Below, piece after piece: positions 502 to 58,859 of a stretch of DNA of 64,000 bases; position 1 is the stretch's first letter, and each line of letters opens with the position of its first letter. A model generated the notes under the pieces. It was not told the DNA's origin. It searched no databases and was given only the letters and a program-made list of their open reading frames with translations. Origin of the DNA: Squalus acanthias (lineage: Eukaryota); NCBI GenBank assembly GCA_030390025.1, contig CM059432.1, positions 62,498,001 through 62,562,000 on the forward strand, read 5' to 3'. Both the position numbers and the translations under genes were made by a program.

Positions 502-1985
502 AAAGTATTTGTTTAATTTCACTGATACTTCCTTATTCCCCATTATAATTTCTCCTGTCTCAGCCTATAAGGGACCCACATTTACTTTTCCTAAGCTTTT
601 TCTTTTTACATACCTATAGAAGCTTTTACAGTCTGTTTTTATGTCTCTCATATTCAATTTTCCCTTTCTTTATCAATTTCTTGGTCCTCCTTTGCTGAAT
701 TCTAAAATCCTCCCAATCCTCAGGCTTATTAATCTTTTTGGCAACATTATAAGCCTCTTCCTTTGATCTAATACTATCTTTAACTTCTCTTGTTAGCCAC
801 GGTTGGACCACTTTTCCTGTGGGGTTTTTGTGCCTTAAAGGAATGTATATTTGTTGTAAATTATGTATTAATTCTTTAAATGCTAGCCATTGCTTGTCTA
901 CCGTCATACCTTTTAATGTAGTTTCCCAATCTACCTTCGCCAACTCGCCCCGCATACCTACGTAGTTTGATTTGTTTAGATTTAAGACCCTAATTTCGGA
1001 TTTAACTAAATCACTTTCAAACTAAATATAAAAATCTATGACATTATGGTCACTCTTCCCTAAAGGCCCCTTTACTACAAGATTATTAACTAACCCTTTC
1101 TCAATGCACAATACTAGATCTGTTCCCTGGTTGGTTCCTCAACATACTGATCCAGACAACTATCTTGAATTCGTTCTCCACACTATTACTGCAAATTTGG
1201 TTTGCCCAGTCTATATGTAGATTAAAGTCCCCCATGATTACTGCATTACCCATGTTACATGCACTTCTAATTTCCTGATTTATACTCTGCCCAACATTAC
1301 AACTACTGTTTGGGGGCCGATAAACAACTCCCACCAATGTTTTCTGCCCCTTGCTGTTTCTTAGCTCCACCCAAACGGATTCTACTTCTTGATTTAGAAA
1401 CATAGCAAAATAGGAGCAGGAGTAGGCCATTCGGCCCTTCGAGCCTGCTCTGCCATTCAATATGATCATGGCTGATCCTCTATCTCAATACCATATTCCC
1501 GCTCTCTCCCCATTCCCCTTGATAACTTTTGTGTCTAGAAATCTATCTATCTCCTTCTTAAATATAATCAGTGACTTGGCCTCCACAGCCTTCTGTGGTA
1601 GAGAATTCCACAGGTTCACCACCCTGAGTGAAGAAATTTCTCCTCATCTCAGTCCTAAATGTCCTACCCCGTATCCTGAGACTGTGACCCCTCGTTCTAG
1701 ACCCCGCAGCCAGAGGAAACATCCTCCATGCATCCAGTCTGTCTAGCCCTGTCAGAATTTTATACGTTTCAATGAGATCCCCTCTCATTCTTCTAAACTC
1801 TAGTGAACACAGGCCTAGTCGACCCAATCTCTCCTCATACGACAGTCCTGCCATCCCAGGAATCAGTCTGGTGAACCTTCGCTGCACTCCCTCTATGGCA
1901 AGTATATCCTTTCTTAGGTAAGGAGACCAAAACTGCACACAGTACTCCAGGTGTGGTCTCACCAAGTCCCTGTATAACAATAGTA

Positions 1986-2245
1986 AAAATTGAGAGGTCG
2001 CACAACACCAGGTTATAGTCCAACAGTTTTATTTGAAATCACAAGCTTTCGGAGCTATCGATTGCTCCTTCCTCAGGTGAAGTAAATTAGATACAGAATT
2101 CTGTATCTAATTTACTTCACCTGAGGAAGGAGCAATCGATAGCTCCGAAAGCTTGTGATTTCAAATAAAACTGTTGGACTATAACCTGGTGTTGTGCGAC
2201 CTCTCAATTTTGTCCACCCCAGTCCAACACCGGCATCTCCGCATC
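1986..2245 (+). mobile_element. ORF-less Penelope-like insertion: perfect 226-bp palindrome + 34-nt tail
   Basis: Arms 1986-2098/2099-2211 are exact reverse complements; TSD ATAACAATAGTAA at 1974-1986 and 2246-2258. Confidence 0.8.
2117..2158 (+). ncRNA. Minimal hammerhead ribozyme motif (mirror copy 2039-2080 on minus)
   Basis: TCAC-CTGAGGA-A-GGAGC[AATCGATA]GCTCC-GAAA-GC-TT-GTGA: core, stem I, stem II, palindromic AGCT helix III. Confidence 0.7.
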
Positions 2246-5200
2246 ATAACAATAGTAAGACATCCTTGCTCCTGTACTCAAATCCTCTTGCAATGAAGGC
2301 CAACATACCATTTGCCTTCCTAACTGCTTGCTGCACCTGCATGTTTGCTTTCAGTGACTGGTGTACAAGGACACCCAGGTCCCTTTGTACATCAACATTT
2401 CCCAATCTATCACCATTTAAATAATACTCTGCCTTTCTGTTTTTCCTACCGAAGTGGATAACTTCACATTTATCCACATTATACTGCATCTGCCATGTAT
2501 TTGCCCACTCACTCAACTTGTCTAAATCGCCTTGAAGCCTCTTTGCATCCTCCTCACAACTCACAATCCCACCTACTGTCGTGTCGTCAGGAAACTTGGA
2601 AATATTACATTTGGTTCCCTCATCCAAATCATTGATATATATTGTGAATAGCTGGGGCCCAAGCACTGATCCCTGCAATACCCCACTAGTCACTGCCTGC
2701 CACCCTGAAAAAGACCCATTTATTCCTACTCTCTGTTAACCAATTTTCAATCCATGCCAGTATATTACCCCCAATCCCATGTGCTTTAATTTTGCACACT
2801 AACCTCTTATGTGGGACTTTATCAAAAGGTCTTCTGAAAATCCAAATACACCACATCCACTGGTTCTCCCTTATCTATTCTACCAGTCACATCCTCAAAA
2901 AGGTCCAGTAGGTTTGTCAACCACGATTTCCCTTTCATAAATCCATGTTGACCTTGTCTAATCCTGTTGATATTTTCTAAGTGTTCTGTTATCACATCCT
3001 TTATAATAGACTCTAGCATTTTCCCTACTACTGATGTTAGGCTAACCAGTCAATAGTTCCCTGTTTTCTCTCTCCCTCCTTTTTTAGATAGTGGGGTTAC
3101 ATTTGCCACCCTCCAATCTGCAGGAACTGTTCCATAATCTATAGAATTTTGGAAGATGACAACCAATGCATCCACTATTTCCATGGCTACCTCTTTTAGT
3201 ACTCTGGGATGCCGATTATCAGGCCCTGGGGATTTATCGGCTTTCAGTCCCATTAATTTCTCCAGCACTATTTTTTTTTTACTAATACTAATTCCCTTTA
3301 ATTCCACCTTCTCACTAGACCCTTGGTTCCCTAGCATTTCTAGGAAGTTATTTGTGTCCTCTTCCGTGAAGACAGAACCAAAGTATTTGTTTAATTGCTC
3401 TGCCATTTCCTTGTTCCCCATTATAAATTCTCCCGTTTCTGACTGTAAGAGCTAAGATCCTTTCTCTCTACTGTCTTTATCCCATCCTTTATCAGGGCTA
3501 CCCCTCCTCTTTTTCCATTTTGCCTATCTCTTCTAAAAGTTAAGTATCCTGGAATATTTAGTTCCCAACCTTGGCCACTTGGCAACCACTTCTCCATTAT
3601 GGCTATTAGATCAAACCTGTTAATTTCTTTCTGCGCTATTAATTTATCTATTTTGTTGTGAATGCTTCGCACAGATATAGTGCCTTTAGCTTTGACTTAT
3701 TTCTATTTTTCCCTGATGTCACCTTAGTCACTGATGCCTTATTACCTTTGTTACTCTCTCTGTCCCTTCCTGCTTATTTTTATCCAAAACTCTACTCTGC
3801 TCTACAGCCTTGACATTTCTCTCGCTGCTTTTAAATTTACTCTTTCCTGAATCCTCCCACCACCCCCCGCTTCATTAGTTTAAAGCCATGTCTACTGCCC
3901 TAGTTCGCCAGGACACTGGTCCCAGCCCGCTTTAAGTGGAGCCCGTCCCAATGGAACAGCTCCCTATTTCCCCAGTACTGGTGCCAGTGCCCCATGAACT
4001 GAAACCCATTCTCCCACACCACTCTCTGAGCCACGCATTTAAACGTCTAATCTGTTTGTCCCTATGCTAATTTGCGCGTGGCTCAGGTAACAATCCAGAG
4101 ATTATTACCTTTGAGGTTCTGCTTTTTGATTTGGATCCTAGCTCCTCAAACTCCCTCAGCAGAACCTCATTCCTAGTTCTACCTGCCATTGGTTCCGACG
4201 TGGACCACGACAACTGGATCCTCCCCCTCCCACTCCAAGTTCTTCTCGAGCTGCGAGGAGATGTCTTTAACCCTGGCACCAGGCAGGTAACACAACCTTC
4301 GGGACTCTCGGTCACGGCTGCAGAGAACAGTATCTATCCCCCGACTATACTGTCCCCTACCACAACTACATTCCTTTTCACTCCTCCCACTTGAATGGCC
4401 TCCTGCATCATGGTCAGCTTGCTCATCCATCCTGCAGGCTTTTCCCTCATCCACACAGGCAGCAAGAACCTCACACCTGTTGGACAAGGGCAAAGGCTGA
4501 GGCTCCTCCAGCACTTCACCTGGGGTCCCCTTACCTGCCTAAGTTGCAGTCACACCGTCCTGTCACTGACCACTAATCAGACCTGTACCACTACCTAACC
4601 TAAGGGGTGTGTCTGCCTCCTGGATCAAAGTCTCCCCATCCCTGATACCCCGCAATATCTGCACCCTAGACTCCAGCTCAAAAACTCTGAGCTGAAGTTC
4701 CTCAAGATGCAGGCACTTACTGCAAACGTGGTTGTCCGAGATCATAATGTTCTCCACAAACTCCCACATGCTGCAGTTGCGGCACACCACCTGCACTGCC
4801 ATCCCTATATGACCTTATTTTATTTAATTAAATGTGTTTTTAGGTAACTCAGTTTACAGTGTAGTTTCTTGACTACTTATTTGATCTAGATTAAGTTAAG
4901 GGTACTGAAATTAAATATCTACCTGTAACACAAAGCACTACAAGTAGTGTAGGCAAAAAGCAACAACTCCTTCCCCCATTTCTCCAAATTCCCACTCTTT
5001 CCAAATTCCCAAATAAAACACTCTGTTCAAGTCCACTCCATTTAATCCCACTCACATTTAGTGCATGAGAAGACACAGGGATAAATCTTAGTTTCACTGC
5101 CAAATCACAGAAATGTAAACAATTATCATTAAGATGTATGGGTTATTTAAGCGAATCAAGAAAAGAACAATTTAAGTAGCTTACTTAGAATGAGCATTTA

Positions 5201-5364
5201 GCTTAGTACTGTATTGTTTAATTGAGTGCCTATTATTATTTGTTCCACAGTGCTCTAACTTTTTTTTTAATTCATTTTTTAAATGGGATTTGAAAACAAG
5301 GTCAGCAAGCACAGGGGTGATAGGTGAACGGGACTTGGTGCGAGTTTGGACACGGGCAGCAGAG

Positions 5365-7963: not shown

Positions 7964-8279
7964 TTCAGCTGTCTCTTGTAAATCATAATTTTCACTTTTC
8001 AGATACAAAAGACTCATAATCTGGATCAGCCAGATCACGGAGTTCTGACAATCTGCTTCTTTGCACCATAAAACAATTGCAATTAATATGAATAGTAAGT
8101 CGGGAAACTGATAGATACATTACCATTTTACCAGACCATTAACATTAAACTTAAGCCCAAAGTCCAGGTAAAACCTAGAACAAATACAATTACACAATAT
8201 CTGGCAGTCTTAAATTTCCATCTCTTATTGATTCTGTTTTCAGTCTGACTGACACACTTCCAACTGTCGTTTCACCCAC

Positions 8280-10734: not shown

Positions 10735-13135
10735 TAATCATAGAATAATTTAATTTTATAGCAAATTCGGCGCATCGTGCCAACTCTCTGAAAGAATCAA
10801 CCACTTAGTCACATTCCCCTGCCCCATACCCTTTTAAGTTTTTCTCTCTTAAATATTTATCCCCTTTTTTTTTTAAAAGCAATTATAGATTCCTCTTCCA
10901 CCACTGTTGCTGATAGGGCATTCCTTATCTGAGCAACCCTCTTTGTAAAAAAAATTAATTCTCCTAGATTCTCACATTGCTCTTTTGGTGATAATCTTAG
11001 ATGAATACCCTCCAGTTACTGACTCAATGGCCAGTGGAAATACTTTTTTCCTTAACCCCTCACAATTTTGAATATCTCTACCAGATCTCATTTTAACCTT
11101 TGTTCCAATGAAAATAGCCCCAATTTCTCTAGTTTCTCCTCATAAGTAAAGCCTCTCCATCCCCAATATCATCATAGGAATCTCTTCTGTACGCTCTCTA
11201 CGACCTTGACATCTTTCTTAAAGTAAGCCATCCAAACCTGGGCACAATATTCTAACTTTGGCTTAACCAATGATTTGTATCTTAGCATTACCTCTTTGCT
11301 CTTGTACTATACATCCCCATTTATAAAACCTAGGATCCCATATGCTTGCTTTTTTTTTTTACAGCTTTATCAATTTGTCCTCCCACTTCTAAATATTTGT
11401 ATATCTGAATCCCTAATTATCTCCATTCCTCTACTCCTTTTAAATTTTCATCATTTAGTGTATATATTCCCTCTTCATCCCAAAATGTATCACCTCTCAA
11501 TTCTCTGGATTAAATTGCATCTGACATTTATCTACCCAATCTAATAACCTGTCCATGTCCTCCTGAAGTCGCTTAGTCAGTCCTCTGCAGTTCACCAGTG
11601 CCTATTTTGGTGTCATCTGCAAATTCTGATTTTTACCCCCATACCCAAGTCAAGATCATTTAAATATATGGACAAAAGCAATGGACTAACCACTGACCCC
11701 TGGAGGATTTTTAAAAAATTTTTATTCGTTTTATGGGATCTGGGCGTCGCTGGCAAGGCCAGCATTTATTGCCCATCCCTAGTTGCCCTTGAGATGGTGG
11801 TGGTGAGCCACCTTCTTGAACCGTTGCAGTCCGTATGGTGATGGTACTCCCACAGTGCTGTTAGGGAGGGAGTTCCAGGATTTTGACCCAGCGACGATGA
11901 AGGATCAGCGATATACTTCTAAATCAGGATGGTGTGTGACTTGGAGGGGAACTTGGTGGTGGTGGTGGTGGTCCCATGCGCCTGCTGCCCTTGTCCTTCT
12001 AGGTGGAAGAGGTCGCGGGTTTGGGAGGTGCTGCCGAAGAAGCCTTGACGAGTTGCTGCAGTGCATCTTGTAGATGGTACACACTGCAGCCACGGTACGC
12101 CGGTGGTGGAGGGAGTGAATGTTTAAGGTGGTGGATGGGGTGCCAATCAAGCGGGCTGCTTTGTCCTGGATGGTGTCGAGCTTCTTGAGTGTTGTTGGAG
12201 CTGCACTCATCCAGGCAAGTGGAAAGTATTCCATCACACTCCTTACTTGTGCTTTGTAGATGGTGGAAAGGCTTTGGGGAGTCAGGAGGTGAAACACTCG
12301 CCGCAGAATACCTAGCCTCTGACCTGCTCTTGTTGCCACAGTATTTATGTGGCTGGTCCAGTTAAGTTTCTGGTTAATGGTGACCCCCAGGATGTTGATA
12401 GTGGGGGATTCAGCGATGGTAATGCCATTGAATGTCAAGGGGAGGTGGTTAGACTCTCGCTTGTTGGAGATAGTCATTGCCTGGCACTTAAGTGGCAGGT
12501 AACATTCGCGCCACAGATCAGCCCAAGCCTGAATGTCGTCCGGGTCTTGTTGCATGTGGGCATGGACTGCTTCATTATCTGAGGAGTTGTGAATGGCGAT
12601 GAACACTGTGCAGTCATCAGCGAACATCCCCATTTCTGACCTTATGTTGGAGGGAAGGTCATTGATGAAGCAGCTGAAGATGGTTGGGCCTTGGACACTG
12701 CCCTGAGGAACTCCTGATTGACCTTCAACCACCACAACCATCTTCCTTTAGCTAGGTATGACTCCACTGTTTATATCCCTCCAGTCCTAAAAACACCCAT
12801 TAACCACTAATTTTTTTCCTGTCCTTTAACCAAGTTCCTATTCATGTTGCTACATTCTCCAATATCATATACCATAACTTTGTCAACAAGCCTCCTCTGT
12901 GGCACTTAATCATTTTGACAATCCATATACACAACATCCATTCCATAGCCTTAATCAATTCACTCTGTTCTTTTCTTAATAAACTCTTACATTTTTTAGA
13001 CATGATGTACTTTTTACAGAAACATGCTGGTTGTCTTTAATTAACCTATGTCTTTCTAAGCAAATATAAATTTTATCCCATATTATGGGTTCTATAAACT
13101 TACACACTACCTGTACTAATGGTCGGCTGACTGTT
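10735..13135 (-). mobile_element. Old CR1 fragment, interrupted by LINE copy B
   Basis: Degenerate CR1 RT/3' sequence at 10735-11705 resuming at ~12767. Confidence 0.6.
11715..12766 (-). mobile_element. EN+RT LINE copy B (3' part)
   Basis: ORF 11905-12741 with PQGS, FADD; near-identical to copy A. Confidence 0.9.
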
Positions 13136-17463: not shown

Positions 17464-18594
17464 GACCCAGAAATTTGACTCGGAGGCTTGCCGCGGGGTT
17501 AAGGATCGCGCGCGATATCACACTCCGCGCCGGCCGTTGTGTTTTGGGCCCACAGGAACTTCGGGTCCTGGGCCTCTCCCTAGTGCCGGCGCGCAGTGTG
17601 TGCGTGTCCCAGGGGCGCAGTTAGTGCGATGCGACCTCTGGGATCACGTGGGCCATGGAGAGCCAATGGCAGCAGACTATCTTTCATTCATAGATTTGAC
17701 AGGAGACATGTCAAATCTGTGAATTGAAAGAGACCCCAAAAGAACAGCTAAACCGCAAATAAAAATTTTTTTTAAACCATTACATTAATAAAATAACTAT
17801 AGTTAAATAAATTAACCACTTTAAATAAAAATTTAAATTTTTTTAAAAATTAAAAAAAAAATTAAAAGTTATAAAAATAAACTTACAGGAAACTCTTTAT
17901 TAACCGGCACCGACGGGACCGGCGTGGTGCTGGTTAATCAAAAAGTCCGGATAACGGAGAGTTATATCTCCCAACGTACGAGAGCCCCGTACACATTGAC
18001 ATGCGCCTGCATTCGGAGCTCCGTCTCCCCAGGGACCGCCAGCTGACCATCTGTCGTGTCCGCTGCCTACCCGGGCTGCACATTCCCCTCCCAATCTACA
18101 CGCTCCGATACAAGGCAAACGCCTCGGGGTTTTTTTTAAAGTTAATTTTAAACGAGAGATGAAGGAAAACCCCGGTTACCTACTCAAGAATTTTGCCGGT
18201 TAAGAGAGATTTCCAGATATTTGGGTGCCGGTTAATAAAGAGTTTCCTGTACCTTTCTTTAAAGTCTCTAAAAAAGATAAACCTGTTGAAAAAAATTAAA
18301 AATTATACTTAATTAACTACTTACCTTGTTCAAAAGGGGTCTTACGCCTCCTTTTTATATGTGTAGAAGATTCAATACTTACCCTCGCGTTGAAACCTGA
18401 AAAAAAACCTAAGTGTGCTGCGTGCGCACAGCCTGTAGTGCGCACGCGGTTCACCTAGGAACCGCCCCCTTCGCCATAGCGGAAGTGCCGGTTTCCCGCG
18501 CATGCGCAGTGCATGCAGGAAACCGGCACTTCGGGATCTAATACGGGTGAGTACACAGTGCGTACTCTCCCGTATTAGGCCGAATTTTTGGGCC
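17464..18594. mobile_element. Harbinger-type non-autonomous element hosting a pogo-like MITE
   Basis: Ends GACCCAGAAATTTG / CGAATTTTTGGGCC; GC-rich flanks, AT-rich core. Confidence 0.6.
17886..18249. mobile_element. Tc1/mariner (pogo/Tigger-like) MITE, 364 bp, copy 1
   Basis: 26-bp TIR CAGGAAACTCTTTATTAACCGGCACC, TA TSD. Confidence 0.9.
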
Positions 18595-28402: not shown

Positions 28403-29115
28403 CTGAAACAGAATGTTTTGTTTTTTAAAACTTAAAAATAAAACAATAGTTCACAAACTGTAAGAGCATAATTGATTACCAAACTTATTTGGGCAATTTC
28501 AATACTTCTGTCATACAATAGTTGGAAAAATGGATTTTATGCAGACATTTGATGCAGTTTAATAAGTCACCCACACAGCAGCAATTAATTTGTTTTGTCA
28601 TTACATCAGCAGCTCTATTATATTAATTGTGCCTATGTAAGTTCTAAATTTTCTTGCTCCCAATCTGAACAGCAAAATTTCCCACCTTCACAATTCAGCT
28701 TCAATTTAGCTTTGCAGCAATGGTAACAATTTAGTAATACTAAATCAAAACATTAAACTCTCGAGTACTTCTCATGAAAATAATCCCAACAGTTCTTATA
28801 GATTTTGCACAAAATGGATTTGAACAATGTTCTCACACGTAGCTGGCCTTCTGAAGGGAGCAATCATTTCCAGAAATGCCAATTTCTCAGCATCTAGCTG
28901 AAGACTGCCAGTAACCCCTGCTGTTCATATTATTTAAATTGAACATCTTTCGAATACTTCGCCAATCTGGTCGTGGTCCTCCCCAATGTTGGCAGAAGGT
29001 CCACACAACCCAGCAATGCTGAAAGGATACAAGTTAAATCCGCAATGCTGAAAGTGCACTGCTGGCAGGGGGATTGACAGTTCAATATATTTGTACACTG
29101 AGGTTTGGTACTGAC

Positions 29116-29284
29116 CTACAGTGCTAATAAAGCTCCAGAGAACAGGGCCCTTTCCTGCAAGGGCAATGAACAGTTTAACTATGGAACGACAACAAACTGG
29201 TTGCATTCTCGCACTGTACTGTGGGAAGCCGTCTATCTGAACCACCAGCAGACGTTCTAGCACAGAAGTATAAACTCCAGGGAT
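29116..29284 (-). CDS. PRKDC: DNA-PKcs exon 13 (169 nt)
   Basis: [24 protein letters not shown]...[12 protein letters not shown]. Confidence 0.97.
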
Positions 29285-29942
29285 CTGAAGAGAAAAACAA
29301 TTCCAGTGATGCATATAAATTATTTAATATGTAAACTTTTCAATAAATTATTCCTTCAGAATATTTTGTTCAATGTTATTACCATTAGAGTAACTGCAGT
29401 TTAATTTCCATTGTATCATTTTAAAATCACAAGATTACAGAAAGTATCAGTTTATCTAGGGTTTAAAGAGCATATTCACCAATAAAATTCGGCACTTTAG
29501 TGCCGAAAATTTTAATTCTACCTATACTAGGCAGTGCACTGGTGCCCCAATATTCCAAGGCACAGACTAGTAGGACATAGGCTACATCTGCAATTCCCCA
29601 TGTGGTAAGCCATACTGAGTGAACTGGGGTTCTGCAATCACAGAGGAGGCGTGAAAATCAAAGACTGGTTCACCTTCTAGTGACTGAATCCAGAGTGGCA
29701 ATGGAGATTTTTTTTTAATTAATCTTACTCATTGAGTTTACTTAAGCTCACCAATAATATAGGAGCCATGCAACTTTTGCCATTAAAATACAATTTAAAA
29801 TCAACTTATTATAAAAGTCTATTGATGCAAATGAAACTTGAAACTGGTACATTCTCAAAACACAGGAATCCTATTTAAAAAAGGAGACAAACACAGGATG
29901 GTTATGAAATTTCCCAAAGCAACTAACACAGGGTGCACTTAC

Positions 29943-30107: not shown

Positions 30108-30732
30108 CTAAAATCATAGAACAGGGAAATAAAATAAAATAATTGAGTCTGCTTTGGGACTGTAGTATTGTTGGTGAATTAATTGCAAAAGTAAAAAAGT
30201 ACATAAATATACTTTCAAAATGTATTGTAGGATATACTGATCTTACATTATGCATATTCAACATTATTTCTGGTTAATTTCTGGTTAAGTTTACAGTACA
30301 TAAGGAGACCACTCTGTGCATCCAGACTGTGCCAGCTCTTTCCTCACGCAATCCAAAACTAATCCCACTGTCCCACCCTCTCCCTCTAGCCCTGTATCTT
30401 CCTGTGCATCAAATATTTAACCAATTTTCCTTTAAAAGATGCAATGGTGTCTGTCTCAACTGCTCCTTGTTGCAACAACTTGTACAGAACCTTGGTTAAG
30501 CCACACTTGGAGTACTGTCAACAGTTCTGGTCTCCATATTCTAAAAAGGATATAGAGGCACTGGAGAAGGTGCAAAAACGATTTACTGGAATGATACCAG
30601 AACAGAGAGGTTATACCTACCAGGAAAGATTGAACAGGCTGGGGCTCTTTTCTCTAGAAAAAAAAAGTCTGAGGGGTGACCCGATAGAGGTCCTTAGATT
30701 ATGAAAGGGTTTGATAGGGTAAACGTAGAGAA

Positions 30733-32087
30733 TAGGTTATTGACTAACATTCACTACAAGCCCACTGACTCCCACAGCTACCTGGACTACACTTCCTCCC
30801 ACCCCGCCTCCTGTAAGGACTCTATTCCATTCTCCCAGTTTCTCCGTCTCCACCGCATCTGCTCCGACGATGCCACCTTCCATACCAGTGCTTCCGACAT
30901 GTCTTCCTTTTTCCTCAACCAAGGATTCCCCTCTACTGTGGTTGACACGGCCCTCGACCGTGTCCGTTCTATCTCCCGCACTTCCACCCTCACCCCTGCC
31001 CCTCCCTCCCGGAACCACGATAGAGTTCCCCTTGTCCTCACCTTTCACCCCACCAGCCTCCACATTCAACGGATCATCCTCCGCCATTTCCGCCACCTCC
31101 AGCGTGATCCCACCACCAAACGCATCTTCCCCACACCTCCCCTTTCAGCATTCCGCAGAGACCGCTCCCTCCGCGACACCCTAGTCCACTCCTCTACCAC
31201 CCCCAGCACCCCTTCCCCTTCGCCCGGCACCTTCCCGTGCAAGCGCAGGAGATGCAACACATGCCCTTATACCTCCCCTCTCCCCCCTGTCCAGGGCCCC
31301 AAATACCCCTTCCAGGTGAAACAGCAATTTACTTGTACTTCCTGCAATTTAGTATACTGTATTCGCTGCTCACGATGTGGTCTCCTCTACATTGGGGAGA
31401 CCAAACGCAGATTGGGTGACCGCTTTGCAGAACACCTCCGTTCAGTCCGTAAGGGGGACCCCGAGCTCCCGGTGGCCTGTCACTTTAATTCTCCGCTCCA
31501 CTCCCACTCTGACCTCACCGTCCTCGGCCTCTTGCATTGTTCCACAGAAGCTCAGCGTAAGCTCGAGGAACAGCACCTCATCTTTCGTTTAGGCACCCTA
31601 CAGCCCTCTGGACTCAACATCGAGTTCAACAATTTCAGATCATAACCTTGGCCCCGATCACATATATATATATATATCTTTTTATTTTATTTTTTCATCC
31701 ACCCTTTTGTTTGGCCTTTTTTTTCCCCTCCCAGAAGCTGGCAGCTGTCCTTCATTCTGCCAGCGCAGTTCACACTTCATCCAGCCTCTACCTGTCACAT
31801 TACCACCTCCTCTTGCCTTGATTATCTCTTTATGTCTCTTAATCTCTCCTGCTTTCTATCCCACCACTGACCTTGCCTTTTGTTCTTTCATCCCCTCCCC
31901 CTTTTCCCAGCATTATACTTGCTTTAAATCTATTTCATTTCTTGCTTTTTTCCAATTCTGACGAAAGGTCTTCGACCTGAAACGTTAACGCTGTTTCTCT
32001 CTCCACGGATGCTGCCTGGCCTGCTGAGTTTTTCCAGCGTTTTCTGTTGTTATTTCGGATTTCCAGCATCCGCAGTATTTTGCTATC
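30733..32087 (+). mobile_element. 5'-truncated Penelope-like retroelement (RT C-terminus + GIY-YIG endonuclease + terminal repeat region)
   Basis: Open frame to 31645: YKPTD..YL..SSHP..K.SIPFSQFLR; CxxxxCxxC; NLVYCIRC..C.LLYIGETKRRL..RF.EH; GLN; 14-bp TSD GTAAACGTAGAGAA (30719-30732, 32088-32101). Confidence 0.93.
31955..31989 (+). ncRNA. Minimal hammerhead ribozyme motif in the PLE terminal region
   Basis: CTGACGA-A-AGGTC[TTC]GACCT-GAAA-CG-TT; palindromic ACGT helix III; stem I weak in this copy. Confidence 0.6.
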
Positions 32088-33180
32088 GTAAACGTAGAGA
32101 AGATGTTTCCACTTTGACAAGACCAGAACTAGAGGCCATTAATACAAGATACTAATAAATCCAATAGGGAATTCAGGAGAAAGCTGCTTACCTAGAGAGT
32201 GGTTAGAATGTGGAACTCGCTACCACAAGTAGTCAAGACGACTAGCATAGATGCATTTAAGGGGAAGCTAGATAAACACATGAGGGAGAAAGGAAGAGGG
32301 ATATGTTGATGGAGTTAGATGAAGAAGGGTGGGAGGAGGCTCCTGTGGAGCATAAACATCGGTATGGACCTGTTGGGCAGAATGGCCTGTAGCCTGTTTC
32401 TGTGCTGTAAATATTATGTAATACCATGTAACCCTCTACAGACATTCTCCTAATCCCCTTCGTACTTTTTAAGTGAAGATTTTAAATTGATAACCGCTTG
32501 TCGCCGACTCCCTAATCAGAGAAAATAGTGTTTCCCTATTTACCTTATTAAAACCCTTCACAATTTTTAAAACCGCTTTTAAATGTCCTCTGAGCGTTCT
32601 CTACTCTAGTAGAAATTGTCCCAGTATCTCAAGTCTCTCCTCATAACTAGCTTCACAAGCCTGGCATCATCCTGGTGAATCTATGGTGTGTGCTCTCTAT
32701 GGCTTTAATGTCCTTTCTATAATGGGGTGCAAAATCTACACAGAGTAGTCTTAACTATGGTCTAACCAATGTTTTGTTCAAATTTATCATTACTTCTTGA
32801 CACTTGTACTCTATGCCCGTATTTATAAAACCTAAAATGCTATAAGGGATGTAAATGTACGACTGGATGGTGTAAGATGGGGAACAGTTCAGAGTGCTGG
32901 ACATTGGGACCAGTTCTGGGAGAGAAGCAACCTGTACAAGATAGACAGGCCTCATCTGAATAATTTGTGACGTGGGAGTGGAGGAGCTGTGGAGGGGGAA
33001 TGGCATTTAAACTAATATAGCAAAGGGAGATAATTTTAAAAATGAAGAAGCTGAAAGGGAAGCAAAAGAGACAAGGCATATAGGAAAGAATAAAGAGAAA
33101 ACAGGAAATTAAAAAACAGATCAAGAGGAGAGATTAAAAGAGTAAAATTGCCAAACAGACAGAGGCAGACTTGAGTTATT

Positions 33181-38279: not shown

Positions 38280-39118
38280 CTAATTTTGCGTGTAATTGGT
38301 AAATTAACTTCAATATAGATAAGTGTGAGGTGGTACATTTTGGTAGGAAGAATAAGGAGGCCACATACTCCTTGGAAAATAAGTGTCTAAATGAGGTAGA
38401 GTAGGAGAGGGATCTGGGCGTACAGATATACAAATCACTAAAAGTAGCGACACAGGTCAATAAGGCCATAAAAAAGCAAACAAAGCATTGGGGTTCATTT
38501 CTAGAGGGATAGAATTGAAAAGCAGAGAAGTTATGCTAAATATGTATAGAAACTTGGTTAGACCACACTTGGAGTACTGTCAACCGTTCTGGTCTCCATA
38601 TTCTAAAAAGGATATAGAGGCACTGGAGAAGGTGCAAAAATGATTTATTGGAATGATACCAGAACTGAGGTTATACGTATCAGGAAAGATTGAACAGGCT
38701 GGGGCTCTTTTCTCTAGAAAAGAGAAGACTGAGAAGTGACCTATTAGAGTTCCTTAAGATTATGAAAGGGTTTGATAGGGTAGACATAGAAACGACGTTT
38801 TCACTTGCGGGGGAGACCAGAAGTAGGGGCCATAAATATAAGATAGTCACTAATAAATCCAATAGGGAATTCAGGAGAAACTTCTTTGCCCAGAGTGTGG
38901 TTAGAATGTGGAACTCTCTGCCACAATGAGTAGTTCTGATGACTAGCATAGATGCATTTAAGGGAAGCTAGATAAACACATGAGGGAGAAAGGAATCGAA
39001 GCATATGTTAATGGAATCAGATAAAGAAGGGAGAGAGGAGGTTAGCGTGGAGCATAAACACCGACCGGCATGGACCTGTTGGGCGGAATGACCTGTTTCT
39101 GTGCTGTAAATACTATGT
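38280..39118 (+). mobile_element. CR1 3' fragment
   Basis: LGLFSLEKRRLR..RRNFF.Q.VVRMWNSLP; TATGTAA-type tail split by a MITE. Confidence 0.88.
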
Positions 39119-39119
39119 A

Positions 39120-39483
39120 CAGGAAACTCTTTATTAACCGGCACCCAAATATCCGGAAATCTCTCTTAACCGGCAAAATTCTTGAGTAGGTAACCGGGGT
39201 TTTCCTTCATCTCTCGTTTAAAATTAACTTTAAAAAAAACCCCGAGGCGTTTGCCTTGTATCGGAGCGTGTAGATTGGGAGGGGAATGTGCAGCCCGGGT
39301 AGGCAGCGGACACGACAGATGGTCAGCTGGCGGTCCCCGGGGAGACGGAGCTCCGAATGCAGGCGCATGTCAATGTGTACAGGGCTCTCGTACGTTGGGA
39401 GATATAACTCTCCGTTATCCGGACTTTTTGATTAACCGGCACCACGCCGGTCCCGTCGGTGCCAGTTAATAAAGAGTTTCCTG
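39120..39483. mobile_element. pogo/Tigger-like MITE, 364 bp, copy 2 (inverted relative to copy 1)
   Basis: Same TIR, TA TSD, near-identical to 17886-18249. Confidence 0.9.
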
Positions 39484-39750
39484 TAATATTATGTAATAAT
39501 TGTGTAGGACACTCCGTATCATATTTTTTATTATATTCAAATGAAACAATGCCTCTCCACTTCTTGTAATGTATTATAATAACGTTTGCTGAAGAAACCA
39601 AGCTATGTGACCAGCTGGTGAGTACCCTGGCGTGACTCTGCAGCTTTTGGAGAGAGAAAATTAGATGGAAAATGTTTTTATCAATTTATGGCAAATATGT
39701 ATTATTTCAAACACTCGATTAGAATACTGCAGTGATTAAAGGAGAATTAC

Positions 39751-41539: not shown

Positions 41540-44500
41540 ATTTATTTTTTTATATTCGTTCATGGGATGTGGGCGTCGCTGGCAAGACCAGCATTTATTG
41601 CCCATCCCTAGTTTCCCTCGAGAAGGTGCTGGTGAGCTGCCTTCTTGAACGGCTGCAGTCCGTGTGGTGAAGGTACTCCCACAGTGCTGTTAGGGAGGGA
41701 GTTCCAGGATTTTGACCCAGCGACGATGAAGGATCGGCGATAGACTTCTAAATCAGGATGGTGTGTGACTTGGAGGTGGTGGTGTTCACATGTGTCTGCT
41801 ACCCTTGTCCTTCTAGGTGGAAGAGGTCGCAGGTTTGGGAGGTGCTGCCGAAGAAGCCTTGGCGAGTTGCTGCAGTGCATCTTGTAGATGGTACACACTG
41901 CAGCCACGGTACGCCGGTGGTGGAGGGAGTGAATGTTTAAGGTGGTGGATGGGGTGCCAATCAAGCGGGCTGCTTTGTCCTGGATGGTGTCGAACTTGTT
42001 GTGTGCTGTTGGAGCTGCACTCATCCGGGCAAGTGGAAAGTATTCCATCACCCTCCTTACTTGTGCCTTGTAGATGGTGGAAAGGCTTTGGGGAGTCAGG
42101 AGGGGAGACACTCGCCGCAGAATACCTAGCCTCTGACCTGCTCTTGTTGCCACAGTATTTATGTGGCTGGTACAGTTAAGTTTCTGGTCAATAGTGACCC
42201 CCCAGGATGTTGATGGTGGGGGATTCAGCAATGGTAATGCCGTTGAATGTCATGGGGCGGTGGTTAGACTCTCGCTTGTTGGAGATAGTCATTGCCTGGC
42301 ACTTGTGTGGCACGAATGTTACCTGCTACTTATCAGCCCAAGCCTGAACGTCCTCCAGGTCTTGTTGCATGCGGGCATGGACTGCTTCATTATCTGAGGA
42401 GTTGTGAATGGCACTGAACACTGTGCAGTCATCAGCAAACATCCCCATTTCTGACCTTATGTTGGAGGGAAGGTCATTGATGAAGCAGCTAAAGATGGTT
42501 GGGCCTTGGACACTGCCCTGAGGAACTCCTGCAGCAATGTCCTGGGGCTGTGATGATTGACCTTCAACCACCACAACCATTTTCCTTTGTGCTCGGTATG
42601 ACTCAAGCCAGTGGAGAGTTTTCCCCCCCCGATTCCCATTGACTTCAGTTTTACTAGGGCTCCTTGATGCCACACTCGGCCTTGATGTCAAGGGCAGTCA
42701 CTCTCACCTCACCTCTGGAATTCAGCTCCTTTGTCCATGTTTGGACCAAAGCTGGAATGAGGTCAGGAGCCTAGTTGTCTTGGTGGAACCCAAACTGGGC
42801 ATCAGTGAGCAGGTTATTGGTGAGTAAGTGCCGCTTGATAACGCTGTCGATGACACCTTCCATCACTTTGCTGATGATTGAGAGTAGACTGATGGGGCGG
42901 TAATTGGCCGGATTGGATTTGTCCTGCTTTTTGTGGGCAGTTTACCACATTATCGGATAAATGCCTGCATTGTAGCTGTACTGGAACAGCTTGGTTAGAG
43001 GCGCAACTAGTTCTGGAGCACAAGTCTTCAGCACGACAGCCGGGATGTTGTCGGGGCCCACAGCCTTTGCTGTATCCAGTGCGTTCAGCCGTTTCTTGAT
43101 ATCACGTGGAGTGAATCGAATTGGCTGAAGACTGGCTTCTGTGATGATGGAAGCAGATATGGATCATCCACTCGGCACTTCTGGCTGAAGATGGTTGCAA
43201 ACGCTTCAGCCTTGTCTTTTGCACTCATGTGCTGAGCTCCACCATCATTGAGGATGGGGATATTCATGGAGCCTTCTCCTCTTGTTAGTTGTTTAATGGT
43301 CCACCACCATTCACGACTCGATGTGGCAGGACTGCAAAGCCTTGATCTGATCCGTTGGTTGTGGGATCGCTTAGCCCTGTCTATAGCATGCTGCTTCTGC
43401 TTTTTAGCATGCATGTAGTCCTGTGTTGCAGCTTCCCCAGGTTGGCACCTCATTTTTAGGTATGCCTGGTGCTGCTCCTGGCATGCTCTTCTACACTCCT
43501 TACTGAACCAGGGTTGGTCCCCTGGCTTGATGGTAATGGTAGAGTGAGGGATATGCCAGGCCATGAGGTTACAGATTGTGGTGGAATACAATTCTGCTGC
43601 TGCTGATGGCCCACAGCACCTCTTGGATGCCCAGTTTTGAGCTGCTAGATCTGTTCTGAATCTATCCCATTTAGCACGGTGGTAGTGCCACACAACATGA
43701 TGGAGGGTGTCCTCAGTGTGAAGACGTGACTTGGTCTCCACAATGACTGTGCGTCACTGCTACCAATGGACAGATGCAGCTGCAACAGTTAGATTGGGGA
43801 GGACGAGGTCAAGTAGGTTTTTCCCTCGTGTTGGTTCTCTCACCACCTGTCGCAGGCCCAGACTGGCAGCCATGTCCTTCAGGACTTGGCCAGCTCGGTC
43901 ACTAGTGGTGCGACCGAGCCACTTTTGGTGATGGACATTGAAGTCCCCCACCCAGAGTACATTTTGTGCCCTTGCTACTTTCAGTGCTTCTTCCAAGTGG
44001 TGTTCAACATGGAGCAGTACTGATTCATCAGCTGAGGGAGGGCGTTAGGTGGTAATCAGCAGGAGGTTTCCTTGCCCATACTTGACCTGAAGCCATGAGA
44101 CTTCATGGGGTCTGGAGTCAATATGAGGACTCCCAGGGCCACTCCTTCCCGACTGTATACCACTGTGCCACCACCCCTGCTGGATCTGTCCTGCCGGTGG
44201 AACAGGACATAGCCAAGGATGGTGGAGGTATTTGGGACATTGGCTGAAAGGTATGATTCTGTGAGTATGACTATGTCAGGCTGTTGCTTGACTCGTCTGT
44301 GGGACAGCTCTCCCAATTTTGGCACAAGTCCCCAGATGATGGTGAGGAGGACTTTACAGGGTTGACTGGGCTGGGTGTGCCGTTGCCGTGTCCATAGCCG
44401 GTGCCGAGGTTGATGCCGGGTGGTCCGTCCGGTTTTATTCTTATTGTGTTTCGTAGCGGTTTCTTACAACTGAGTGGCTTGCTAGGCCATTTCAGAGGGC

Positions 44501-49049: not shown

Positions 49050-52000
49050 ATTCATTCCTGGGATGTAGGCGCTGCATTTATTGCCCATCCCCAATTGCCC
49101 TTGAGGAGGTGGTGGTGAGCCGTCTTCTTGAACCACTGCAGTCCGTGCGATGAAGGTACTCCCACAGTGCTGTTAGGGAGGGAGTTCCAGGATTTTGACC
49201 CAGCGACAATGAAGGATCGGCGATATATTTCCAAGTCAGGATAGTGTGTGACTTGAAGGGGAACTTGGAGGTGGCGGTGTTCCCATGCGCCTGCTGCCCT
49301 TGTCCTTCTAGATGGTAGAGGTCGCGGGTTTGGGAGATGCTGCTGAAGAAGCCTTGGTGAGTTGCTGCAGTGCATCTTGTAGATGGTACACACTGCAGCC
49401 ACGGTACGCTGGTGGTGGAGGGAGTGAATGTTTAAGGCGGTGAATGGGGTACCAATCAAGCGGGCTGCTTTGTCTTGGATGGTGTCGAGCTTCTTGAGTG
49501 TTGTTGGAGCTGCACTCATCCAGGTGCGTGGAGAGTATTCCATCACACTCCTGATTTGTGCCTTGTAGATGATGAGTAAGGAGGTGAGACACTCGCCACA
49601 GAATACCTAGCCTCTGACCTGCTCTTGTAGCCACTGTATTTAAGTGGCTGGTGCAGTTAAGTTTCTGGTCAATGGTGACCCCCCCAGGACGTTGATCTTG
49701 GGGGATTCGGCGATGGTAATGCCGTTGAATGTCATGGGGCAGTGGTTAGACTCTCGCTTGTTGGAGATTGGCATTGCCTGGCACTTGGGTGGCACGAATG
49801 TTACTTGCCACTTATTAGCCCAAGCGTGAATGTCATCTAGGTCTTGCTGCATGTGGACATGGACTGCTCCATTATCTGAGGAGTTGCGAATGGAACTGAA
49901 CACTGTGCAATCATCAGTGAACATCCCCACTTGTGACCTTAAGATGGAGGGAAGATCACCGATGAAGCAGCTGAAGATGGTTGGGCCTAGGACACTGCTC
50001 TGAGGAACTCCTGCAGCGATGTCCTGGGGCTGAGATGATTGACCTCCAACAACCACAACCATATTCCTTTGTGCTAGGTATGACTCGAGCCAGTGGAGAG
50101 TTTTCCCCGATTCCCATTGACTTCAATTTTACTGGGGCTCCTAGATGCCACATTTGGGCAAATGCTGCCTTGATATCAAGGGCAGTCACTCTCACCTCAC
50201 CTCTGGAATTCAGCTCTTTTGTCCATGTTTGAACCAAGGCTGCAATGAGGTCTGGAGCCGAGTGGTCCTGGTGGAACCCAAACTGAACATCGATGAGCAG
50301 GTTATTGGTGAGTAAGTGCCGCTTAATAACACTGTCGATGACACCTTCCATCACTTTGCTGATGATTGAGAGTAGACTGATGGAGCGATAATTGGCTGGA
50401 TTGGATATTGGATTTGTCCTGCTGTTTGTGGAGAGGACATACCTGGACAGTTTTCCACATTGTCAAGTAGATGCCAGTGTTGTAACTGTACTGGAACAGC
50501 TTGGCTAGAGGTGCGGCTAGTTCTGGAGCACAAGTCTTCAGCACGACAGCCGGGATGTTGCCGGGGCCCATAGCCTTTGCTGTATCCAGTGCGCTCAGCC
50601 ATTTCTTGATATCACATGAAGTAAATCGAAGTGGCTGAAGACTGGCTTCTGTGATGGTGGGGACCTCAGGAGGAGGCAGAGTTGGATCATCCACTCGGCA
50701 TTTCGGGCTGAAGATGGTTGCAAACGCTTCAGCCTTGTCTTTTGCACTCATGTGTTGGGCTCCGCCATCATTGAGGATGGGGATATTCATGAAGCCTCCT
50801 CCTCCCGTTAGTTGGTTAATGGTCCACCACCATTCACGACTGGATGTGACAGGACTGCAGAGCTTTGATCTGATCCGTTGGTTGTGGGACCACTTAGCCC
50901 TGTCTATAGCATGCTGCTTCCGCTGCTTAGCGTGCATGTAGTCCTGTGTTGCAGCTTCCCCAGGTTAGCACCTCATTTTTAGGTACGCCTGGTGCTGCTA
51001 CTGGCATGCTCTTCTACACTGCTCATTGAACCAGGGTTGGTCCCCTGGCTTGATGGTAATGGTAGAGTAACGGATATGCTGGGCCATGAGGTTACAGATT
51101 GTGGCGGAATACAATTCTGCTGCTGCTGATGGCCCACAGCGCCTCATGGATGCCCAGTTTTGAGCTGCTAGATCTGTTCTGAATCTATCCCATTTAGCAC
51201 GGTGGTAGTGCCACACAACACGATGGAGGGTGTCCTCAGTGTGTAGATCGGACTTCGTCTCCACAGGGACTGCACAGTGGTCTCTGCTACCAATACTGTC
51301 ATGGACAGATGCATCTGCGACAGGTAGATTGGTGAGGACGAGGTCAAGTAGGTTTTTCCCTCATGTTGGTTCTCTCACCACCTGTCGCAGGCCCAGTCTG
51401 GCAGCTGTGTCTTCAGGACTTGGCCAGCTCAGTAGGTAGTGGTGCTACCGAGCCACTCTTGGTTGAAGTCCCCCACCCAGAGTACATTCTGTGCCCTTGG
51501 TACTCTCAGTGCTTCTTCCAAGTGGTGTTCAACATGGAGGAGTACTGATTCATCAACTGAGGGAAGGCGGTAGGTGGTAATCAGCAGGAGGTTTCCTTGC
51601 CTATGCTTGACCTGAAGCCATGAGACTTCAGTCAATGTTGAGGACTCCCAGGGCCACTCCCTCCCGATTGTATACCACTGAGCCGCCACCCAGGTGGGTC
51701 TGTCCTGTCCTGTGGGATGGTGATGGAGGAGTTTGGGACATTGGCTGAGAGGTATGATTCTGTGAGTATGAATATGTCAGGTTGTTGCTTGACTAGTCTG
51801 TGTGACAGCTCTCCCAATTTAGGCACAAGTCCCCAGATGTTGGTGAGGAGGACTTTGCAGGGTCGACTGGGCTGGGTGTGCCGTTGTCGTGTCCAGTGCT
51901 CCATCCAATTTTATTCTTATTATTGTGTTTCGTAGCGGTTAGTTACAACTGAGTGGCTTGCTAGGCCATTTCAGAGGGCAGTTAAGAGTCAACCACATTG

Positions 52001-56780: not shown

Positions 56781-57435
56781 TATTTTTATAATCTTTTATT
56801 TCCAAAATAGAAATGAAAATTTTCAAGTCATAACATCTTTCCTTTCCAGATTTCCACCCCCACCCCCACTGACATTTGTTAAATTCCACTATTTAGCCTT
56901 CAAAGCCACATATGACCGACTTTCAAGCCCACACAAATGTCATCCTGAGCCGAATGCCATCAGGAACATGAAAGTAGATGGGGAACAGGCCTTTGATTTT
57001 CCATCTCCACTTCGTAGCGGTGTCTGGCTTTCACTTGGCACCTCTCTACATCAGCAGAGTAGAGATCAAGGTTGCCCAACATGATAGTGCGATAAAACTG
57101 CACATCTGTTTACATAGAATTGCAACATGGAAACAGGCTGTTAGGGCTAACCGATCCATATTTGTATTTAAGTTCCACATGTTTTCACAAAGCATGCGAG
57201 AAATAATTTTATAGGGCAGGATTAAAGAAATGCACAAAACCACATGCAATTTCTTAAACTTTGAAAAGAGGTAACAAAACTGTTTATTATTTTGGTGTAG
57301 CAATCCCACTCAAGTCCTCACTGGGTTAACATACAAGAACACAAAATAATTCAAGATTACTAAAACAACTTATTGGCATAGCCCTGGCCCAAACAAAAAA
57401 CGGACAGACAGACATAGTCTACTCCTCTTAATTCA

Positions 57436-57664
57436 TGATGCGGAGATGCCGGTGTTGGACTGGGGTGGACAAAAATGAGAAGTCGCACAACACCAGGTTA
57501 TAGTCCAACAGATTTATTTAAAATTACAAGCTTTCGGAGCTGTCGCCCCTTCGACAGGTAAAGGTACCTTTACCTGACGAAGGGGCGACAGCTCCGAAAG
57601 CTTGTAATTTTAAATAAATCTGTTGGACTATAACCTGGTGTTGTGCGACTTCTCATTTTTGTCC
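57436..57664 (-). mobile_element. Second ORF-less Penelope-like palindromic insertion (198-bp palindrome + tail)
   Basis: Arms 57467-57565/57566-57664 with one mismatch; tail 57436-57466; TSD TCCTCTTAATTCA at 57423-57435 and 57662-57674. Confidence 0.8.
57570..57607 (+). ncRNA. Minimal hammerhead ribozyme motif (mirror 57524-57561 on minus has a core substitution)
   Basis: TTAC-CTGACGA-A-GGGGC[GACA]GCTCC-GAAA-GC-TT-GTAA. Confidence 0.7.
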
Positions 57665-58859
57665 TCTTAATTCAAAACTGCTTAATTTAAGTTTTTAGCA
57701 CCAAGTTCCCTATTTGCTGCTATTTATGTTACTTAATTCATTGGGTAATTTAAAAGTTATTACCCCAAAATAACTGAATCAGGAGTAATATATATATATA
57801 TATATACACACACACTTTTAATAAGATGCCTCAGACATAAATTGCATTTTTTTGTTTAGTCAAAACATTACAATTGCAAAACATTTAATAAAATACTGAT
57901 AAAGATGCAGTTATGCTGTGCTATAAAGTGGTAGGACAAGGGACCATGTCCATAATTTCAACTACACACATGGAACCAGGAGAGATGCCAAAAATTAGAT
58001 ACTTTCCCAATAAGAAAGTAAAGAAAGTCACTACTCTCACACACCTAGTGACTGGTTACAGAACGGTTTAGGTAGTGGCCAGGAAATAGTTGGGCTCAGT
58101 CTGATGCTTTGTGTGGACAGAACCTAAAAGAGCAGAAAGATACACTTTAAAGGGTGTGTTCAGAAAAATCCAATAGCCCAATTATTTGGCAAAACCTTCA
58201 AAAAACAAGTTTGAGTGCCAGAGCTTTAGTTGGTTTGTTTTAAGCCAGATGTCATAAGATGCAATATCACACAATATTAAATCGTTCAATCAGAAAAGGA
58301 GAAAGAAAGGGAGCGCTATGACTGGTAGAACTTAACATTCTGTTTCCAAATCACACTTGTTAGCTGCCCTGCTTCAAATACATCAAGAGCCAAGGCTATC
58401 GCGTACTCCTTGTTGGAGTGTTTTTGTTAAGGGCGGGGGGTGGTGGCGGCAACCTGAAGCAGAAGAGACAAAGAAATATAAATAAAATCCAGTTAAGACC
58501 ATAAATCTTCGTTATAAATTGGGGGGCGGGGGGGGGGGGGTGCGGTCATACACTAAACTGCTGCTGGATAGATGATAAAATGCTTATAATACTAAGGTAC
58601 TGTTTTCAATCCAAGTGTCTCTTGAGCATGGGTATTTGTTTAGGTTAACAGAAATAGTTTAAGCCTGTACTTATTAACTAGGTTATGATGATAATAGTAG
58701 TCAAGTTTATTGCTAATATGAATCAATCAATTCTTTTACATCAATAATTGGTAATGTAATGGAATCAATCATTGGGAATAAACCCAGATTAATTGTATGA
58801 TAACTTGATTAACGGCAGGCAAGATGACCCAAGAGAAAGATCCTCCTTGGCTTTTCTCA

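Follow-up and report, generated by a model that had tools for sequence, protein, structure and literature searches.

A head-to-head palindromic insertion in the Squalus acanthias genome, probably copied from the hammerhead-bearing end of a Penelope-like element

A 226-nt palindromic insert at positions 57436-57661 of a 64,000-nt stretch of Squalus acanthias contig CM059432.1 (the whole of this stretch is called the window below) is very probably a strongly 5'-truncated Penelope-like retroelement (PLE) insertion of the endonuclease-bearing type, of which only the pLTR end was copied, twice and head to head. The insert holds no open reading frame and is bounded by exact 13-bp target-site duplications. 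As a PLE insertion, its palindromic pattern is not new but has been in print since 2013-2014: an inverted 5'-truncated copy with a 30- to 40-bp tail at one end is described as frequent among PLE insertions (PMC8557442), rotifer PLE copies with an inverted pLTR, tail, duplication and junction palindromes led their authors to propose self-priming in 2013 (PMC3846280), and opposite-strand pairs of minimal hammerheads have been ascribed to truncated PLEs (PMC4209133). The rotifer elements Adineta Pen2a/Pen3a come closest, with a head-to-head, inverted 5'-truncated pLTR, a junction palindrome, a 30- to 40-bp tail at one end and a short duplication. They differ in that their duplications are 8-10 bp long as against 13 bp in the shark inserts, in which just the last 125-150 nt were copied and no ORF is left (PMC3846280; PMC8557442, as far as these describe the copies).

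Anatomy of the insert and of its sister copy

The window holds a second complete insertion of the same family, here called the sister copy. The features that the argument needs are as follows.

1974..2258, plus strand: sister copy, with insert 1987-2245, 13-bp duplication 1974-1986/2246-2258 and tail 2212-2245
57423..57435: left target-site duplication, 13 bp, the last 2 bases of which also fit the element end
57436..57565, minus strand: long arm, 130 nt, probable 3' part of a PLE pLTR (hammerhead, body and tail)
57436..57469, minus strand: tail, about 34 nt, on the long arm only, identical to 2212-2245
57524..57561, minus strand: candidate hammerhead of the long arm, minimal type I, core broken at 57554 (A6 to U)
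57563..57568: palindrome centre, GGT/ACC with zero spacer, between 57565 and 57566, 8 nt before the core
57566..57661, plus strand: short arm, 96 nt (99 with the 3 bases common to the duplication), tailless
57570..57607, plus strand: candidate hammerhead of the short arm, intact minimal type I
57570-57573/57604-57607, plus strand: its putative stem I, 4 bp
57574-57580, plus strand: its core, CUGANGA, with an extra A at 57581
57582-57586/57591-57595, plus strand: its putative stem II, 5 bp, closed by G-C
57596-57599, plus strand: its 3' part, GAAA, then palindromic GC and UU, with a predicted cut after 57603
57662..57674: right target-site duplication, 13 bp, the first 3 bases of which also fit the element continuation

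The 13-mers at 57423-57435 and 57662-57674 are identical and have only these two occurrences in the window; the chance of such a duplicated 13-mer is about 5e-5 over 40 x 40 placements. On read contigs, the family match begins at 57434, inside the left duplication. The two arms agree at 98 of 99 positions. Their sole mismatch, 57554, changes A6 of the core to U in the tailed arm (minus strand), so that the core is intact in the short arm only. In both inserts the palindrome is asymmetric, with a 34-nt tail on one arm that is identical between the two copies.

The sister copy interrupts a LINE reverse-transcriptase frame that is open up to the duplication on both sides, which supports its boundaries independently. 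Its arms are identical at 113 of 113 positions and meet between 2098 and 2099 (GAA/TTC), 22 nt before the core, and its tailed arm lies on the plus strand, whereas that of the insert at 57436-57661 lies on the minus strand. Between the two copies, which are both from the 64-kb window and are the complete insertions compared (n=2), 10 of 127 compared positions differ, in addition to a 4-nt loop insertion. Stem I reads TTAC/GTAA in the insert and TCAC/GTGA in the sister copy, stem II reads GGGGC/GCTCC versus GGAGC/GCTCC, loop II is GACA versus AATCGATA, and core N7 is C versus G. The initial annotation had described the opposite orientation, the separate 13-bp duplication, the different centre (GGTACC, 8 nt rather than 22 nt upstream of the core), the compensatory change in stem I, the stem II change, the free loop II and the variable N7, all of which are present. 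Its further claim that the arms share the copy-specific variants is borne out by the identities within each copy as against the 10/127 differences between copies, but it overlooked the core mutation at 57554; it also passed over the one-arm tail and named no element class.

Perfect fold-backs are a known library artefact, and no read contig spans the whole stretch, two points in favour of a chimeric fold-back read that entered the assembly or arose during amplification. We regard such an artefact as extremely improbable: exact 13-bp duplications flank both copies, one position differs between the arms, and the sister copy splits a LINE frame that is open on both sides. Moreover, in two runs of different samples, both from organism A, a 2968-nt contig extends from the left flank into the element by 22 nt, although this entry stays below the 31-letter bar for bridging. 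Contigs on 57222-57581 were compared from 4 of the 24 runs listed. These four are public and of DNA type, two being from different samples of organism A, one from B and one from G. The family is very abundant in such reads, with a summed depth that peaks at 8.8 million in run X1 as against 19.4 in the flank, a ratio that does not equal copy number. The small shares seen in RNA-labelled runs do not count as evidence that the family is expressed.

The hammerhead motif and its Penelope-like relatives

All of the diagnostic features of metazoan PLE minimal hammerheads that are given in the available text of Cervera and De la Pena (2014, PMC4209133) are present in the sequence of the insert, which supports its assignment to this minimal type. 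These are a type I form with a 4-bp helix I, G10.1-C11.1, an extra base between 9 and 10.1, a palindromic 15.2-16.2 and no loop 3. The published motifs are likewise highly variable with compensatory changes and occur as opposite-strand pairs, which lie 100-700 bp apart in print but only 16-44 nt apart here, and helix II has 5 bp here as against 7-8 bp in Schistosoma. The hosts named in that text are fishes, coelacanth, Xenopus, turtle and snakes; cartilaginous fishes are not among them. A literature search whose scope excluded subscription journals, Repbase, Dfam and supplements found no account of this family in cartilaginous fishes.

The core CUGANGA ... GAAA ... UH is intact in three of the four arms of the two copies, the fourth being broken at 57554. 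At H17, C makes up 3-15% of the read-contig depth at 57528, and A is found in a marine relative (L003, see below). A relaxed scan for minimal hammerheads on both strands gave three matches in the window, all inside the two insertions, and a mean of 0.0 matches in 50 shuffles. Rfam at gathering thresholds returned no match in the window, a result that says little because the motif is the minimal form without helix III.

The initial annotation had taken the stem changes as the pattern expected of a selected hammerhead fold. As regards the motif, which is of the minimal PLE type, this reading stands; the covariation is less telling. The comparison of the two copies offers a single compensatory pair (P about 0.03). 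When the 10 substitutions are placed randomly, a compensatory pair arises with P 0.028, an intact core with intact stems with P 0.136, and both together with P 0.006. With the marine loci L002 and L003 added, helix I shows one more compensatory pair (A-U to U-A). In a five-row alignment over 17 pairs (two of the rows being one insertion, and L001 being left out because it is 99.6% identical to L003 over 677 nt), 98.7% of the cells pair, a level reached by 4 of 500 shuffles and compared with 26-43% when slid, and 2 of the 17 pairs are changed on both sides, a count that is not significant, as 76 of 500 shuffles match it. This count used a named structure, not RNAalifold; the output of the latter on four rows was set aside, as it misaligned L003 and picked a different 3' helix. 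Read contigs give no covariation count, because the differences reported for them at 2% do not include the matching G-to-A change in stem I (57525). As far as the sequences go, the comparison thus supports a hammerhead fold that rests on motif identity more than on covariation.

Where such selection could have acted is suggested by folding predictions. The RNA of the whole insert is predicted to fold as one hairpin (-178.5 kcal/mol), and in a predicted read-through transcript the bases of stem II find their partners in the opposite arm with a probability of at least 0.999. Under this model, selection on the hammerhead cannot act in these inserts, and since the transcript would fold as one hairpin, the covariation would reflect selection in source elements. 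The folds also contain a predicted 8- to 9-bp stem on the minus strand (span 57454..57509; MFE folds), which pairs body positions 57502-57509 with tail positions 57454-57461 and in the loop of which the end point of the short arm falls. This predicted stem recurs in both copies, in L002 and L003 and in a second PLE family of the window; it is not significant (z -0.5 to -1.8; -1.4 at the locus) and has no pair changed on both sides. We treat it as a weak lead.

The PLE assignment draws on relatives in which a similar hammerhead follows an endonuclease frame. Three loci with the family DNA patterns, L001, L002 and L003, were found on marine contigs in the second of the metagenome contig scans; the first such scan gave none, nor did viral contigs or prokaryote genomes (0 and 0). 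In L002 and L003, the hammerhead is 79-80% identical over 44-53 nt and lies downstream of a GIY-YIG-type frame. The L003 frame matches the window's GIY-YIG frame with 31% over 133 aa (E 6e-13), where the former is without a Pfam match and the latter matches Pfam just below the curated cut-off. L002 also shares the body, with 77% over 71 nt of hammerhead and body, behind the end of a similar frame, and it looks chimeric, with bacterial-type sequence on either side. In viral contigs, the window's GIY-YIG piece has no relative (0 of 101 candidates). An autonomous parent element with precisely this pLTR did not turn up in the viral contigs or prokaryote genomes, which counts against the PLE reading. 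L001 carries an inverted reverse-transcriptase piece upstream of the related end; this piece lies on the opposite strand at L001:102-449 (minus), and a 109-nt inverted copy (94%) is found at L003:1-109.

The GIY-YIG frame of the window (30731-31642) belongs to the second PLE family just mentioned, a 5'-truncated plus-strand insertion at 30719-32101 (insert 30733-32087) within a LINE fragment. It is bounded by an exact 14-bp duplication (30719-30732/32088-32101), has a decayed hammerhead at 31958, and shows no inverted copy. The distance from core to 3' end is 130 nt in this family versus 124-127 nt in the palindromic one. An ATG ends both the family end (57434-57440, minus strand) and the two marine relatives (L002:1002-1009 and L003:1464-1470), 124-137 nt after the core, and is perhaps the start codon of the parent element.

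Two known systems invite comparison. The Poseidon PLE PAc of Anolis carolinensis (Frangieh et al. 2024, PMC11167929) resembles the insert in that its hammerhead lies about 120-150 nt from the outer end and is kept uncut in insertions, its tail is bounded by two start sites, its 3' region is A/C-rich and its targets are A/T-rich; its ORF, however, starts at stem II, whereas here no start codon precedes the tail-end ATG. Non-LTR retrozymes (PMC7229834; bioRxiv 10.64898/2026.07.22.740005) are, from what these sources give, also short, non-coding, of PLE pLTR origin and equipped with a type I hammerhead, but consist of head-to-tail tandem units, each with a hammerhead. Such units are absent from the insert, which has a head-to-head pair with a target duplication.

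Centres, outer ends and the making of the palindrome

Across three cases, the centre of the palindrome is never the same, lying 22, 8 and 5 nt upstream of the core. The third was found in run X16, where one contig folds back 5 nt before the core and stops 15 letters beyond its centre, an early stop that would be expected of a 31-letter assembly at a perfect hairpin. Just past the centre between 57565 and 57566, the summed depth drops to 0.2%, 1.3%, 0.2% and 0% of the preceding bin in the four runs. One fixed family centre is excluded, and with it the case against which the initial annotation had set its own reading, an ordinary MITE with terminal inverted repeats and a single centre. More generally, a MITE or fold-back DNA transposon whose hammerhead look is incidental would account for the long inverted repeats and the target duplication, and inserts of this kind are easily misfiled as MITEs. 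That they are MITEs seems highly improbable, given that the ends are asymmetric (34-nt tail), that the centres differ, and that the motif, absent from 50 shuffles, stands behind PLE endonuclease frames in L002 and L003.

The centres also bear on whether the palindrome could be inherited from a few palindromic sources, such as a non-autonomous PLE derivative that moved whole and had its arms kept alike by conversion. Some other loci do continue like the insert, since the summed depth past the centre in run X4 is 1267 as against 7 for the single-copy flank; the hexamer GAATTC stands at two of the three centres; and the 5' ends of rotifer pLTRs hold palindromes of 18 and 38 bp that are inherited (PMC3846280). 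In those pLTRs, as described there, the palindrome is at the element's own 5' end, whereas the centre varies between the shark copies. Against inheritance, which we judge improbable, stand three centres in three cases, a tail on one arm only, and an RNA predicted to form one hairpin of about -179 kcal/mol. In such a hairpin the hammerhead cannot form, so that a palindromic source would not be maintainable by selection. The proposal that the palindrome is probably made at each integration has thus gained support, from the three centres as well as from the arms, which differ less within a copy than between the copies.

How it is made is suggested by the outer ends. Among the 13 flank-side loose ends listed, six lie at 57431-57435 (tail end), six at 57466-57476 (tailless end) and one at 57489; these rows, at least 13 in number, are unphased and do not tie tailed and tailless ends to the same insertions. 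In addition, element and duplication share bases at each of the four junctions in the two copies (2, 3, 2 and 1). The sum of 8 has a P of 0.001-0.004, and dropping a base inferred from read contigs gives a sum of 7 with a P of 0.004-0.011. Because the outer ends fall at two sites and the four junctions overlap the target, we favour double priming over fold-back: both cut target ends would prime on the same RNA, a reading to which we give about an even chance.

From these observations we infer the enzymatic steps, the 5' end of the RNA and the parent element. The PLE protein would make a staggered cut, 13 nt apart, and each target 3' end would anneal by 1-3 bases to the element RNA and prime reverse transcription. 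An outer start site would give the tailed arm and an inner site, about 35 nt upstream, the tailless arm, such that cDNA begun at the tail end would extend the 3' end of the duplication's top strand, and cDNA begun at the inner site that of its bottom strand. Both cDNAs would copy the same RNA, or a sister transcript, which would make all variants common to the arms, and would run off a common 5' end shortly before hammerhead stem I. The two would then be joined as one cDNA continues onto the 3' end of the other, leaving a spacerless palindrome, and gap filling would produce the duplication. The hammerhead would be carried along uncut, and its pairing with the opposite arm would keep it silent in the insert. 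A comparable event is known from L1 elements, whose 5' inversions arise by twin priming: both target ends prime, which leaves an inverted piece within the duplication. In that case the cDNAs copy different parts of the RNA, whereas here both would copy the same 90-110 nt, hence the palindrome.

The PLE protein of Anolis has several of the properties that double priming calls for. It cuts and extends both target strands, it uses two RNA start sites that bound the tail, and it is a predicted dimer (PMC11167929). The same work reports initiation at an RNA site non-homologous to the cut DNA, which counts against double priming; inverted insertions and duplications are not discussed in the available text. 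Other points weigh on double priming as well. A fold-back strand that annealed to the target overhang would leave overlaps at the junctions as well, the unphased outer-end rows do not place tailed and tailless ends in the same insertions, and there are only two complete insertions. Moreover, the AC beside the centre between 57565 and 57566 mismatches the upstream sequence of other family copies, and symmetric non-family bases are easier to obtain by copying a first arm than by two independent primings.

These last points lead to self-priming, in which one cDNA from one target end would fold back at its 3' end and copy itself, until it stops or is cut about 35 nt before reaching its start. This alternative, a serious one that we nevertheless consider somewhat doubtful, would explain the zero-spacer centres, arms identical at 113/113 and 98/99 positions, and centre bases that are unlike those of other family copies yet mirrored in both arms. 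It is also how inverted-junction palindromes are read in PMC3846280, and the tail has been attributed to endonuclease resolution of an intermediate (PMC8557442). However, self-priming needs a seed hairpin, and the upstream family sequence is not self-complementary 5 or 8 nt before the core, subfamily variation aside. A further step would also be required to halt synthesis at the tail boundary, a position that serves as a primary start site in vitro (PMC11167929). Finally, run X4 contains two opposite-strand joints with unequal arms, 57515/57567 and 57494/57533, that share 0 and 1 bases, although later deletions at the centre could give the same. The self-templated synthesis put forward in the initial annotation is thus possible and has a precedent from 2013 (PMC3846280), but double priming fits the tail asymmetry and the overlaps at least equally well. 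The literature search, with the same limits (no subscription journals or supplements), found no proposal of double priming, twin priming or template switching for PLE palindromes.

Run X4 also shows, at 57432-57475, that compound or nested insertions exist: in one of its contigs a tail end is fused to a tailless end of the opposite strand, and in another the tail occurs twice, 15 letters apart.

For these copies, hammerhead cleavage was rejected as the source of the centre. The cut site is on the 3' side of the core and every one of the three centres is on its 5' side, which means that the centres are not set by the cutting of the ribozyme. In vitro, hammerhead mutants leave insertion by the Anolis PLE protein unchanged (PMC11167929). 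It is tempting to speculate, though on balance unlikely, that the hammerhead is mainly a structural module and not a cutter. Its palindromic helix III would pair two element RNAs, so that a dimeric PLE protein could prime both target ends at once; the body-tail stem would set the start sites, the inner one in its loop and the outer one past its 3' strand; and synthesis would end just past stem I. If this were true, the abundant mini-palindromes would be a natural read-out of double priming and would answer how PLE inverted repeats and tails arise.

Genomic setting and use as a class

The locus itself is ordinary, and its use is as a member of a class. The origin of the inverted repeats and tails of PLEs has been called undefined (PMC8557442), and within some 250 bp each, the very abundant short, intact palindromes flanked by duplications preserve the centre together with the two primer junctions. 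A survey of these palindromes could tell double priming from self-priming, with no need for an enzyme assay.

As judged from a sequence match, the window is probably in or near the PRKDC gene: positions 28934-29323 (minus strand) match the N-terminal domain of DNA-PKcs over the length of an exon (PF20500, E 2.6e-24). The inserts may therefore be intronic, and such inserts, if transcribed within introns, would yield long double-stranded RNA. Elsewhere in the window, LINE endonuclease and reverse-transcriptase fragments lie on the minus strand at 1101-7998, 11905-12747, 44056-44463 and 49640-50122, with the longest open pieces at 5992-7998. An inverted pair of 376 nt, 98% complementary and 20.9 kb apart (17877-18252 and 39117-39492), consists of two young repeat copies.
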